A stretch of 64,000 nt of DNA from an uncultured Chlamydiae bacterium. GTDB lineage: Bacteria; Chlamydiota; Chlamydiia; Chlamydiales; SM23-39. A program made the position numbers and the translations under genes. Below the pieces are notes generated by a model, which was given only the letters and a program-made list of their open reading frames with translations, had not been told where the DNA came from and did not search any database. Positions 5,445 to 15,322 of this stretch are shown piece by piece (position 1 is the stretch's first letter; each line of letters opens with the position of its first letter). The stretch is from assembly GCA_963828125.1 (NCBI GenBank), contig CAWHDP010000002.1:1792001-1856000 (forward strand). The letters run 5' to 3'.

Positions 5445-5729
5445 ATGTCTCGTCACGAAACTTTAAAAAATAAATGGGCGGAGATCGTAGCAAAAGCATG
5501 GATTGACCCAAAATTCAAACATAAACTTTTGCAGCATCCTGATGAGGTGTTGCGAGAGATGAAGTTGAAAATGCCTGGGAATGTGCGGCTTAATATTGTC
5601 GAAAATACTCAAGATATGTACTACTTGGTTTTGCCGGAAAAACCTGTGGAGAATCTTTCTGAAACAGAGCTGAAAAAAATAGCGGCGGCAGCTCCGGGTG
5701 GTTATACAACGAATCGGGGTTTCGAGTAG
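5445..5729 (+). CDS. NHLP (nitrile hydratase-like leader peptide) RiPP precursor
   Basis: IVAKAWIDPKFKHKLLQHPDEVL...IVENTQDMYYLVLPEKP..LSETELKKIAAA matches the NHLP leader consensus (AW.D..F...LL..P; VVE......YLVLP; LS.EEL..VAGG). A short C-terminal core follows, and the gene sits directly upstream of YcaO. Confidence 0.9.
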   Translation: MSRHETLKNKWAEIVAKAWIDPKFKHKLLQHPDEVLREMKLKMPGNVRLNIVENTQDMYYLVLPEKPVENLSETELKKIAAAAPGGYTTNRGFE

Positions 5730-5765
5730 GGGTGAAAAAAATGGCGGCGGCCGCTCCCGGCTGTT
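5670..5765 (+). repeat. Degenerate direct repeat (62-nt period) of the leader-end/core-start coding sequence
   Basis: ctgaaaaaaatagcggcggcagctccgggtggtt (5670) versus gtgaaaaaaatggcggcggccgctcccggctgtt (5732). Confidence 0.85.
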
Positions 5766-12453: not shown

Positions 12454-15322
12454 TCTTTTTCAACGGTATCCAGACAAAAAAGAATATAAAAATGGAGATC
12501 TCGTCTCCCTGGCGGAGCGGGCAGGGGTTTTTTGGTTCACTACTCCTTGCAAGAGGTTGAGTTATTTTGCGATTCCTAAAACAGGGGATAAGACCCGCTT
12601 TTTTTTGCGCCAAGCGGATCACCTTTTGTTTTTTTCTTTGCATAGCGGATCTGAACCAGATCCGTATGATATCGCGGTGTTGTGCGAAGGGGATGCTGTT
12701 GTGACAGTCGTTCCCGAGAAAGATCTCGCTCTGGCGATAGAGGCAGATCCCCTGCTCGCCGATGCATTTTTGCCTGTTTTTGCGGAGAGGGTGGAGGGGC
12801 TTGCTTCGATCTATAGAAAAAAACTGCCTGAAGACTCTTTTGTCACATTTGCCCAAGGAGAGATTGTCTCAATCGAACCTGAACAACTTCTCCTCACGCC
12901 TCACCAGTTAGATATCGTCATGATTCGGGTGGTAGAAGGAAAACTTTTGCTCTTTGGAGAGGGCGACTGGGTCCTTGCAACGGGGGAACTCTATCCGCTG
13001 ACGAAATCGATCTGGTTCAAAGCTCAGGGGCTGTCAAAAATCGAAATTTGTCCCGTTTTGCCGAACTGGCGGGAGGCGCTGCACAAATTTGTTTTCTTTT
13101 ATCACCGACTCGTTTCCCGTTTTATTGAAGAGGGAGAACAGGCGGACCGGTTGGCTCTCAAAGAGCGGGGAGAGGCGCAAAACAAGCAATTGTCGGTAGC
13201 GCTAAGAAAACTCTACTCGGTTTTTTCAAAATCGTTTCTCGACGTCCGGACGTATGACACCCCTCTTCAACAAGCGTGCAGACAAATTGGGAGGGTCTCT
13301 CAGATCACATTTCAGTTTCCCTCCTCCCTCCACACAAAAATCGAAGGGATGGAAGCCATAGATCAGATTTGCGAAATTTCGCAGGTTCGTAAGAGGGTTG
13401 TCCACCTGTCATCCAAACATTGGTGGAAAAATGATTATGGCCCTTTTTTAGCCTTTGAATCCGATTATGCCCATCCCATTGCCCTTTTGCCCCGCCCTTC
13501 GGGCGGATACGATCGACTCGATGGACTGACCCGTGTCCCTTTGAATGAAGAAAATAGCAAAAATATCCTTCCAGAAAAAGTCGTCTTTTATTCCCCCTTT
13601 CCTCAACGGACGAGCCGTTGGGAGAACATTTTATTTGCATTTTTTAAACGGCATATCCAGTTTTTTGCCGCCCCACTCGGATACACGGTCATTGGAACGC
13701 TGCTCATGTGTATTCCGCCGGTTGCTTCCCGTTTTCTTTTCGGCAATGCGGTGCCAAACCATTCAGAGGCGCTTGTCGTGTATCTTTGCTCAGGCCTTTT
13801 GATTGCATCGGTCGGGGTCGTCTTGTTTTATGCAGGCCGAAATGTCGCAAGTTTGCGGCTTCAAATCTATTTGATCCATTTTTTACAAGGAGGTCTTTGG
13901 GACCGGCTCCTTCAGGTCGTCCCTGCTTTTTTTCGCAAATATTCGGTCGGGAAGATATTTGCATGGATGACGATTTGCGATGAAATGCGGCGACTTGTCC
14001 CTTTAAGTCAGTTGAATTACCTTTTGACAGGGATTGTCTCCCTCCTCTTTTTCATCCCCATGGGGTTCTATTCGATCCGGCTCACCCTTTTTGTAGGGAT
14101 TTTTGTCCTGATTGGCGCGACGCTCGGCTGGATTTGCACCCGGAAAAGGGCCCGGTTTTTGTCCGATTGCCTCGTATTAATAGAGAACTTTCGCGGATTG
14201 ACCTTGGAAGTGATCATGGGCCTTGGCAAGCTCCGCACTGCAGGGGCTGTAAAGAGCGCCTTCTCTCACTGGCTCTCTTCGTATGCCACTTTAAAATCTC
14301 TGCAATTTCGAGCTCAGTTATGGTTGAACGGGGCCACTGCGGCCAGCGCTGTGATTCCTCTCTTAATTTACTGGAGTCTTTTTGCTTGGATGATCCATAG
14401 CACGTCCTTAGACAAGCCCTCGCTTCCCGATTTTATCGCTTTTACGATCGCCCTCGGCAGTTTTGCTGCGCTCTATTTTCCTGCCATTCCCATCTTCGTA
14501 AAACTATCCCATTTTACCCCCCTTTGGAAGCAGATCCAAGTGATTTTAGAGGAACCTGCTGAAGAGGTTCTAGAAAAAGTGTTGCCTGGTAAACTGAGAG
14601 GCCACATTCGATTTGACCAAGTGAGCTTTCGCTACGATCCTCAATCCCCCTGTGTATTGAAGAACCTTTCCCTCGAGATTAAACCGGAGAGCTTGGTTGG
14701 AATCGTCGGACCGAGCGGCAGCGGAAAATCGACCCTGATCCGCCTTCTGCTCGGATTTGAACGGCCCGATTCAGGCGCCATTTATTACGACTCTCAAAAT
14801 TTAGAGAGCCTCAATCCCTATTTGGTCAGACGGCAGATCGGATCTGTATTCCAGTCCGAAGGACGGGCGATTTTTTCCGGAACTCTCTATGAAAATATCG
14901 TTTGCGGCGGCTCTTATACAAAGGAACAAATTGCAAAAGCCCTATCTCTTTCCGGATTCAATACCGATCTTCAGGGGATGCCCATGGCTCTGCATACTTA
15001 TACCCCTTCTGGCGGAGCTGTCCTATCTGGCGGGCAGAGGCAGCGCCTTCTCCTTGCGCGCGCGCTTGTCGCCCAACCCTCCATCTTGATTCTAGATGAA
15101 GCGACGAACGCGATGGACAATACGACCCAAAAGAATTTTCTCCAGTCTCAAAGAGAATTGCACATGACGCGGATCGTCATAGCTCATCGCCTGGCGAACT
15201 TGCGCGATGCGGACTTCATTTTTGTACTCGACGGAGGCGCTCTTGTTGAGCAGGGGACGTTTACTGAGCTGGCAAAACAGGGGGGAATGTTTGCCCGTAT
15301 GCTGGAAAGGCAGCAATTTTGA
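12434..15322 (+). CDS. Second NHLP-system ABC transporter (permease/ATPase, no active peptidase)
   Basis: WWKNDYGPFLAF (inactive C39-like region), TM domain, GPSGSGKST, LSGGQRQR, LILDEATN. The paired arrangement is typical of NHLM export systems. Confidence 0.88.
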   Translation: MQAPLFDLFQRYPDKKEYKNGDLVSLAERAGVFWFTTPCKRLSYFAIPKTGDKTRFFLRQADHLLFFSLHSGSEPDPYDIAVLCEGDAVVTVVPEKDLALAIEADPLLADAFLPVFAERVEGLASIYRKKLPEDSFVTFAQGEIVSIEPEQLLLTPHQLDIVMIRVVEGKLLLFGEGDWVLATGELYPLTKSIWFKAQGLSKIEICPVLPNWREALHKFVFFYHRLVSRFIEEGEQADRLALKERGEAQNKQLSVALRKLYSVFSKSFLDVRTYDTPLQQACRQIGRVSQITFQFPSSLHTKIEGMEAIDQICEISQVRKRVVHLSSKHWWKNDYGPFLAFESDYAHPIALLPRPSGGYDRLDGLTRVPLNEENSKNILPEKVVFYSPFPQRTSRWENILFAFFKRHIQFFAAPLGYTVIGTLLMCIPPVASRFLFGNAVPNHSEALVVYLCSGLLIASVGVVLFYAGRNVASLRLQIYLIHFLQGGLWDRLLQVVPAFFRKYSVGKIFAWMTICDEMRRLVPLSQLNYLLTGIVSLLFFIPMGFYSIRLTLFVGIFVLIGATLGWICTRKRARFLSDCLVLIENFRGLTLEVIMGLGKLRTAGAVKSAFSHWLSSYATLKSLQFRAQLWLNGATAASAVIPLLIYWSLFAWMIHSTSLDKPSLPDFIAFTIALGSFAALYFPAIPIFVKLSHFTPLWKQIQVILEEPAEEVLEKVLPGKLRGHIRFDQVSFRYDPQSPCVLKNLSLEIKPESLVGIVGPSGSGKSTLIRLLLGFERPDSGAIYYDSQNLESLNPYLVRRQIGSVFQSEGRAIFSGTLYENIVCGGSYTKEQIAKALSLSGFNTDLQGMPMALHTYTPSGGAVLSGGQRQRLLLARALVAQPSILILDEATNAMDNTTQKNFLQSQRELHMTRIVIAHRLANLRDADFIFVLDGGALVEQGTFTELAKQGGMFARMLERQQF

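Follow-up and report, generated by a model that had tools for sequence, protein, structure and literature searches.

A cluster of six genes with the content of an NHLP/YcaO/SagB azole-peptide pathway was analysed in a 64,000-nt stretch of DNA (the window; contig CAWHDP010000002.1, positions 1,792,001-1,856,000) from an uncultured Chlamydiae bacterium, the genome of which (2.37 Mb, 95% complete) is held on two contigs. All positions are window coordinates, with those on the contig carrying the window (C2), on contig C1 or within comparison loci (L numbers) marked as such. The six genes lie on one strand (+), fill positions 5445-15322 and are of the types defined by the NHLP and thiazole/oxazole-modified microcin (TOMM) models of Haft et al., namely TIGR03793, TIGR03882/TIGR03604, TIGR03605, TIGR03794, TIGR03796 and TIGR03797 (PMC2887384), each of which was applied with its own TIGRFAM cut-off (Table 1). 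Matches for the precursor, cyclodehydratase and dehydrogenase were over the cut-off, bearing out the NHLP/TOMM biosynthesis and C39-ATP-binding cassette (ABC) export class proposed in a preliminary description of this DNA. The transport trio (TIGR03794, TIGR03796, TIGR03797) fell under it as scored, with the two pieces of ABC1 covering positions 1-181 and 157-708 of the TIGR03796 profile (245.9 and 617.4 bits, whole-model cut-off 853.3).

Table 1. Features of the cluster and its immediate surroundings, in window coordinates
Feature	Position	Strand	Basis
NHLP precursor, 94 aa	5445..5729	+	TIGR03793, 68.3 bits (cut-off 50.9); 18-precursor alignment
Leader, residues 1-82	5445..5690
Predicted 12-aa core, APGGYTTNRGFE	5691..5726
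Out-of-frame second leader end and core start, VKKMAAA/APGCWPISKQ...	5728..5765	+	Direct repeat of 5666-5703
13-bp hairpin, precursor 3' region	5784..5811	+	201-nt region folds with z = -3.7 against shuffles
Intrinsic-terminator-like hairpin (stem 5822-5848) with T-rich tail	5822..5858	+	12-pair stem
Fused RRE (winged helix-turn-helix)-E1-like-YcaO cyclodehydratase, 735 aa	5884..8091	+	TIGR03604, 258.7 bits (cut-off 219.25); TIGR03882, 48.1 bits (cut-off 36.9)
SagB/ThcOx-type flavin mononucleotide (FMN) azoline oxidase, 452 aa	8088..9446	+	TIGR03605, 135.1 bits (cut-off 78.4)
NHLM HlyD-like periplasmic adaptor, 275 aa	9451..10278	+	TIGR03794, 135.3 bits (under cut-off 156.2)
C39 peptidase-ABC transporter (NHLM ABC1)	10284..12453	+	TIGR03796, scored as two pieces
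Second ABC transporter (NHLM ABC2), 962 aa	12434..15322	+	TIGR03797, 609 bits (under cut-off 709.4)
Autotransporter (context only)	15366..20636	+	PF03797; starts 43 nt 3' of ABC2

From the YcaO gene to ABC2 the intergenic spacing is -4, +4, +5 and -20 nt, whereas the precursor is set apart from the YcaO gene by 154 nt holding the terminator-like hairpin; the genes had been described as six tightly coupled same-strand genes, and the shared strand stands but the tight coupling does not extend to the precursor. Three terminator-like sites were observed across the region against 1.0 expected. As had been stated previously, no TolC or immunity-like open reading frame (ORF) lies inside the cluster, with five TolC-family genes located elsewhere in the genome. 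The GC content of the cluster is 49.2% (genome 48.7%), and GC at third codon positions is 0.52-0.56 in its five large genes compared to 0.61-0.64 in five housekeeping genes.

In the window, one surplus base near position 10853 shifts the frame of the ABC1 gene and divides it in two. Contigs of two short-read runs, X1 (which may be the source sample) and X2 (a different sample of the same study), both soil metagenomes by record, lack this base and give a single 722-codon gene. The break is therefore an assembly error and all six genes are apparently intact, so that a pseudogenised exporter was rejected. Chimerism at the cluster borders, raised as a concern in the preliminary description, was rejected as well, since a single 16.5-kb X1 contig runs continuously over 1500-16175 (dnaE to the autotransporter) with ten gaps, nine in dnaE and one at 10853, and an X2 contig bridges 4529-5615. 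After this check, no stop and no real frameshift was present over 9.9 kb; the precursor showed no indel in X1, its stop codon is real, and the identical 94-aa precursor was found on nine contigs. A marine run, X3, contained a small share and was not used for habitat. In the dnaE gene (1575-5297, - strand), nine surplus bases and many substitutions, all of them missing from the short-read contigs, leave the reading frame in several pieces; the assembly thus has local error-rich stretches, and other apparent pseudogenes therefore need a read check.

Records titled Chlamydiae, Chlamydiales and Chlamydiota have flanking genes that match the genome at up to 88, 77 and 72% identity, respectively, while cyanobacterial or proteobacterial counterparts reach at most 54%, in agreement with the chlamydial backbone that had been claimed. 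Thirteen further genomes of the genus were compared: dnaE starts no more than 1.5 kb from uhpC in seven, 2.7-4.8 kb of other genes occupy this interval in two, and four could not be placed. As the interval is short or differently filled in these genomes, the cluster and autotransporter occupy a variable uhpC-dnaE interval; the neighbours named previously (dnaE and a Pmp-like autotransporter) were confirmed, but the Pmp label was not, as PF03797 and a weak TIGR02601 match were obtained and no Pmp-specific model was matched. The autotransporter has an 89%-identical paralogue at C2:470645-475873 and doubled read depth, and no match to it was found at the other azole loci listed. It is probably a separate recent duplicate unrelated to the cluster.

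Precursor and modifying enzymes

The nitrile hydratase-like leader of the precursor lacks the CxxCSC metal site, and the precursor is devoid of any Cys. Alignment of 18 precursors placed Leu, Glu, Leu and Ile at leader positions -12, -8, -7 and -4, which fits the recognition pattern of peptidase-containing ABC transporters (PCATs) (PMC10885120, PMC8277102), and Ala-Ala at -2/-1, where the canonical sites are GG, GA and GS (PMC10885120). An Ala-Ala leader end was identified in 21 of 107 parsed chlamydial precursors and in none of 25 others, using a pattern that allowed only A or G at that spot, with 38 further hidden Markov model matches without a parsable end dropped and L096 counted as chlamydial. 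The leader also contains the L(X)4L motif (L71/L76) needed by MprC (PMC12455567).

The predicted core contains two Thr and neither Cys nor Ser, and is not rich in heterocyclisable residues (two, with a range of 1-7 in 23 azole-locus cores). A thiazole product, as envisaged previously, is not possible from this precursor because its core is without Cys. The core mass is predicted to be 1268.58 Da, or 1248.55 Da with one azole and 1228.53 Da with two. Chlamydial cores have a median length of 13 aa (107 precursors), with several exporter-linked cores having only 1-5 residues. The closest natural precursor, P0277 (64%), likewise has a Cys-free, Thr/Ser core, and a Cys-free core was also found at L053. 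A second, orphan NHLP precursor of 87 aa is encoded at C1:80284-80547 (L013 8284-8547, - strand), adjoining a nucleotidyltransferase-like gene; it has an Ala-Ala leader end and a 9-residue core with two Ser, and is likely to be a second substrate of the enzymes.

The best PDB matches of the YcaO protein were LynD (E 3e-145, full length), TruD and MusD. This fused C-D cyclodehydratase keeps the YcaO ATP/Mg motifs and the C-terminal PxP, and all four zinc-ligand Cys of its E1-like domain are gone, both CxxC motifs being missing. Among 107 homologues both motifs are kept in 101 and two have no Cys in either. The E1 zinc of McbB is described as purely structural (PMC6395948), and the literature consulted on the zinc site held nothing specific to the NHLP/YcaO system seen here. 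For SagB, the best PDB match was CyaGox (E 2e-56); its Lys387-Tyr388 pair (WKYE at 386-389), a pair catalytic in SagB-type enzymes (PMC6395948), is kept, and the conserved RPYP loop reads RPSA. Every catalytic motif checked was found to be kept, namely those for YcaO ATP/Mg, the SagB Lys-Tyr pair, the C39 triad and both ATPases. The divergence of YcaO and SagB would fit specialisation for Thr/Ser and relaxed selection alike.

Streptolysin S-type cytolysins are made with separate C and D proteins, a SagA-type precursor and a CAAX-type protease/immunity gene. Here, C and D are fused, the precursor is of the NHLP type, and a domain profile search found no CAAX-family match among the cluster genes. 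The cyanobactin enzymes LynD/TruD/MusD and CyaGox/ThcOx (PDB 4v1t, 4bs9, 7u58, 5lq4) are full-length sequence matches of YcaO and SagB, but neither a PatA/PatG-type protease nor a PatE-type precursor is present, all six genes being otherwise assigned, and a PCAT exporter is found instead. NHLP-type TOMM clusters with a three-gene NHLM exporter were described by Haft, Basu and Mitchell in 2010 (PMC2887384), in which, as far as the paper was available, no Chlamydiota genome is named, only Victivallis (‘chlamydia group’). All six of their gene types recur here, with the differences that the leader ends in Ala-Ala and not Gly-Gly, the core is poor in Cys, Ser and Thr, the zinc tetrathiolate is absent and the adaptor has 275 aa against a 421-position model. 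The MprE/MprC/MprD system shares an NHLP leader with L(X)4L, an RRE-fused YcaO with a flavin oxidase, and more than one precursor per enzyme, but has ten precursors, 2-6 azolines and a preference for Cys, in contrast to the two Cys-free precursors of this genome (PMC12455567). Nostatin A from Nostoc sp. is likewise an azole proteusin made by a cyclodehydratase and oxidase on an NHLP precursor; its core has 30 residues and LanM-like and radical-SAM enzymes take part, whereas here the core has 12 and no further tailoring enzyme is encoded (PMC11583998). Judged from its sequence, the cluster is of the NHLP/YcaO/SagB azole-proteusin type, like MprE/MprC and nostatin A, and departs from defining features of that type in the double glycine, the core rich in heterocyclisable residues, the zinc site and the adaptor hairpin.

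Exporter and outer-membrane channel

ABC1 possesses the C39 Gln, Cys, His and Asp together with Walker motifs, and Walker A/B, signature and H-loop are intact in its peptidase-less partner ABC2. The adaptor has a transmembrane helix, lipoyl and beta-barrel domains and no alpha-hairpin of the kind that marks tripartite secretion, with nine residues between its lipoyl halves compared to 145 in the longest, TolC-linked homologues. A model from a 28-row alignment (predicted local distance difference test (pLDDT) 91.8) has a mere turn in place of the hairpin; a single-sequence fold (pLDDT 39) was discarded. A Foldseek search with this model returned BesA at all of ranks 1-8 (E 4e-12, template modelling score ~0.48). 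BesA, the adaptor of Borrelia BesABC, also lacks the alpha-hairpin (PMC3807786; PDB 4kkt/4kku/4kks). This likeness is convergent, because identity is ~15% and BesA serves a resistance-nodulation-division pump with its own outer-membrane channel, whereas the present adaptor belongs to a peptide PCAT without a co-encoded channel. The literature consulted on NHLP adaptor hairpins contained nothing specific to the NHLM system.

Hairpin length and TolC linkage were compared across 27 chlamydial loci (26 exporter loci and L044), a hand-picked subset of the 66 exporter-bearing genomes. A TolC-family gene was adjacent at all seven loci with a 145-residue hairpin and at none of 20 shortened loci (0/15 with 0-22 residues, 0/5 with 48-123). 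The ABC1 tree implies two changes of the TolC/long-hairpin state and five for near-total hairpin loss. Outside this set, 38 of 151 further homologues have 25 residues or fewer at the hairpin site, with the short state needing 21 changes on a 185-row tree. Of 20 plasmid homologues, 19 cover at least 80% of the long-form query, in a search biased to long forms. Four hairpin-less forms fall in a clade without a known chlamydial member, sponge-symbiont adaptors are shortened too (54-56 residues), and hairpin loss cannot be called chlamydia-specific. The adaptors of L050, L175 and L176 are cut further, to 193-211 aa, with the lipoyl domain gone besides the hairpin in the L050 alignment.

Proposed route and competing explanations

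The reading preferred here, with a probability of about 0.5, is that the 12-mer receives one or two methyloxazoles, is cut after Ala82 and is delivered to the periplasm, with no sealed TolC channel involved. The terminator-like hairpin suggests that the precursor would be transcribed in excess of the enzymes. By homology to LynD and MprC, the folded NHLP leader with its L(X)4L motif would bind the RRE part of the YcaO fusion protein, and this enzyme would use ATP to cyclodehydrate Thr88, Thr89 or both in the core, with SagB oxidising the products to methyloxazoles. The C39 domain of the ABC1/ABC2 pair may then cut after Ala-Ala while the core crosses the inner membrane, and the peptide would be released into the periplasm and not through a sealed TolC channel, since the adaptor has no hairpin and the lineage has lost its co-encoded TolC. 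Secretion against host cells or competitors, as suggested previously, is unsupported given an adaptor without the TolC-recruiting hairpin, passage of the outer membrane not being established.

Several observations weigh against this reading. LynD and TruD are Cys-specific, and Cys occurs in 20 of 23 parsed precursors of chlamydial azole loci and not in this one. YcaO differs from the conserved residue at 18 of 125 near-invariant columns (the other 13 main-clade enzymes do so at 5-16) and SagB at five of 59 (0-4 in 11 homologues with G handles or from the same genus, six in L096). MprC also prefers Cys over Ser/Thr (PMC12455567), and Ala-Ala is not a canonical cleavage site. The hairpin-TolC link amounts to one or two independent contrasts only, which makes it a pattern and not a significant test, and at L183, L169 and L173 only 0.5-3 kb of upstream DNA was available. 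BesA, though hairpin-less, still works with an outer-membrane channel (PMC3807786), and of the five TolC-family genes in the genome four are in their own pump operons but one is an orphan (C2:128707-130137). Finally, no receptor or regulator was found nearby, and nostatin A is cytostatic and antibacterial (PMC11583998).

An unlikely explanation, although the best surviving of the alternatives, is that the cluster is intact but under relaxed selection, with a Cys core displaced, the enzymes drifting, little or no modified product formed and any export being of unmodified peptide. The Cys-free core with a silent Cys-bearing one behind the stop, the loss of all four zinc ligands, the most conserved-site deviations of the main clade, the altered SagB FMN loop and the long end branches (0.9-0.95 for YcaO, 0.79 for ABC1) are consistent with this, as is the fact that a fused YcaO, partial in one case, was found in just two of the 13 congeneric genomes compared. 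Retention of the open frames and of the checked catalytic motifs argues otherwise; furthermore, the same-genus L012 enzyme is similarly divergent (16 deviations) and the core is not alone in lacking Cys, given L053 and P0277.

It is also improbable, and slightly more so, that a TolC with its gene outside the cluster gives the azole peptide full passage out of the cell, in the manner of BesA, and that the peptide acts on co-infecting bacteria or the host. The BesA precedent, the orphan TolC, the bioactivity of nostatin A and the defensive roles proposed for such clusters (PMC9666466, PMC13229535) speak for this. The orphan TolC does not, however, track the exporter, its orthologue being present in four of nine NHLM-exporter genomes and in eight of 32 others (some of the 32 being outside the exporter-survey sample); with two azoles at most, the 12-mer carries far fewer modifications than nostatin A, the cluster has no immunity gene, and the departure of TolC from the locus was followed by repeated erosion of the hairpin. 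A predicted complex between the adaptor and a monomer of the orphan TolC scored 0.00, gave no verdict and was not used.

The silent core follows a repeat that starts 2 nt past the precursor stop and is identical to 5666-5703 at 31 of 38 nt, with no other such match in 4.7 million genome positions. It runs in the -1 frame into a different, Cys-bearing core, followed by the 13-bp hairpin and then the terminator. Two genomes of another family show the same layout, L063 in the -1 frame with the copy's own stop retained and L203 in the +1 frame, which brings the count to three of 107 precursors; all three copies begin no more than three codons past the stop (p ~0.003, assuming a uniform spread across the 22 codons searched). 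No contig joint was seen at 5670-5732, and P0279 and P0281, being apparent error-laden long-read copies of the locus, were not used as evidence for a two-core frame. The repeat is best read as a relic of tandem precursor genes, because the frames differ between genomes, slippery heptamers occur in ~9% of 12-codon stretches by chance and no in-frame two-core precursor was found among those searched; such a relic does not account for the shared starting point of the three copies. Supply of a Cys substrate from the second core by -1 frameshifting, re-initiation or repeat recombination is highly improbable: the in-frame slippery-type heptamer G GGT TTC at 5717, the -1 frame of which enters the copy, the shared layout and the stop retained in L063 would suit it, but the precursor holds four X-XXY-YYZ heptamers, the frames are inconsistent (-1, -1, +1), which makes a programmed frameshift a weak candidate, the extended frame passes the terminator into YcaO, and tandem-gene relics are simpler, tandem precursors being common (L044, L050, L051, L052). 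Tandem arrays of at least two NHLP leader modules within a precursor were also identified at L012 5990-6484, L054 3345-3881 and L178 11654-14973, the last having five modules in a row and adjoining a long-hairpin, TolC-linked exporter.

As regards function, a short-range, strain-variable signal or an envelope-acting peptide is tentatively preferred, at slightly less than even odds. A signal is favoured over a weapon because cores are short (some of 1-5 aa), exporters outnumber maturases and no immunity gene is present. An antimicrobial or anti-host role is possible but appears less probable, and the absence of any effective product is unlikely.

Distribution among Chlamydiota and wider context

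In a survey of 400 scored Chlamydiota genomes, including that of the window (one more was not scored), TIGR03604 was over the cut-off in 18, of which 17 encode the fused 730-790-aa type in four families and one a stand-alone YcaO. NHLP leaders were found in 51 genomes (39 over the cut-off, up to 13 matches per genome) and the NHLM C39-ABC transporter in 66 at E <= 1e-130 (44 over the cut-off), so that exporters (44) outnumber fused YcaOs (17) when scored over the cut-off. The rarity in chlamydiae implied by the preliminary description was not upheld, the system recurring across the phylum. All six gene types occur together in the window and at five others of the 17 loci (L011, L012, L050, L051, L052); the remaining fused-YcaO loci are split or truncated at a contig end, and those of family f22 (three) show YcaO-SagB with no precursor in view.

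The suggested YcaO phylogeny placed 14 of the 17 fused enzymes in one clade with a few unassigned proteins and L096 (support 100 in one tree, 90 in a second and 99 under a mixture model), but returned no donor lineage. L096 is titled Verrucomicrobia, and its flanks match the window genome at 36-64%. Subclades partly follow family. The best named matches are cyanobacterial, but a cyanobacterial donor was not shown, the main chlamydial clade lying in a polytomy in two trees. A single origin of all 17 enzymes was not settled either, since the f22 trio joins the main clade in the second tree only (support 90) and stands apart in the first and mixture-model trees. The distribution fits an early acquisition followed by patchy loss and some transfer, and not a single recent insertion.

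Biosynthetic clusters have been surveyed across Chlamydiae, with linear azol(in)e-containing peptide (LAP) entries for three chlamydial genomes (PMC9666466 Data S10B). The isolate name of one of these is also that of L101, where a full-length YcaO (37% identical) and a SagB are encoded, and this entry is probably of the present cluster type. A proteusin cluster is named in Endochlamydia hydrae (PMC13229535). In the accessible parts of both papers these antiSMASH calls are table rows or one sentence, with no anatomy, precursor or product, so that prior description in Chlamydiota holds for the calls but not for anatomy or product. Consistent with the earlier claim, no characterised chlamydial product of the class, and no cluster anatomy, was found in the accessible literature on chlamydial biosynthetic clusters, ribosomally synthesised and post-translationally modified peptides, YcaO/nitrile hydratase, proteusins and Rhabdochlamydia bacteriocins; subscription papers and supplements may already describe parts. 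The same accessible literature yielded no mention of the 14/17-enzyme clade, the hairpin-less adaptor with its TolC pattern, the combination of an Ala-Ala leader, two-Thr core and zinc-less YcaO, or the out-of-frame second leader end and core.

A wider scenario, which is speculative and as a whole improbable, is that NHLP genes were acquired early in environmental chlamydiae and kept in about one in eight genomes, and now serve as a TolC-independent periplasmic exporter of short strain-specific peptides with interchangeable tailoring (YcaO/SagB, TfuA-YcaO, LanM or none). Cores would turn over through leader-end repeats that leave silent spares, and here a zinc-free cyclodehydratase would have shifted from Cys to Thr/Ser. 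Such an exporter could possibly represent chlamydial peptide signalling for development or co-infection. Chlamydiae depend on a host, and the literature searched contained no description of a ribosomal natural product made by them. The presence of NHLP precursors and exporter in 11-16% of the sampled Chlamydiota is a comparative result wider than this locus, and repeated hairpin loss after loss of the linked TolC offers a natural experiment on Gram-negative PCAT export without a sealed outer-membrane channel. If the proposed route is correct, it would also supply two useful tools, a C39 domain that cuts at Ala-Ala and a LynD-type enzyme that works without zinc and possibly prefers Thr. Surprise is limited, since this class of pathway is familiar and clusters belonging to it have already been tabulated for chlamydiae.

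A number of further observations were made at the comparison loci. Other maturases, namely TfuA-YcaO, LanM-type (DUF4135 with LanC) and MbnB/TglH-like proteins, accompany NHLP genes at L014, L063, L047 and L054. Family f23 (L165, L166, L167, L219, L230, L233, L236) has cores of 1-5 residues in six of its seven loci and of 15 in L165, with the precursors of L165-L167 directly beside an intact exporter and no maturase in view. A separate NHLP family of nine genomes (L231, L234, L235, L237-L242) has the conserved core E(P/x)QEAxCCPK, and neither YcaO nor an exporter was matched in the two regions of 10 kb that were checked. At L175 (9483-10889, - strand) the YcaO part of an RRE/E1-like protein is replaced by a short GRDP-like segment, adjoining a precursor and exporter. 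At L058-L062, E1, YcaO and SagB are encoded by separate genes, which make up a second azole-type system of chlamydiae, no NHLP precursor being detected in the fetched regions.

Elsewhere in the window, further autotransporters are encoded at 40986-43829 (+) and 53486-55927 (-), which with that at 15366-20636 make two autotransporters and one inverse-autotransporter-like gene. A low-GC ORF of 715 aa at 51268-53415 (+) ends in a HicA-like domain (PF07927, 27.9 bits). Five tandem, near-identical genes of the PD-(D/E)XK nuclease/transposase family (PF12784) are located at 25863-30415 (+), with 228-230 of their first 230 residues identical and a varying number of REEG-type repeats.

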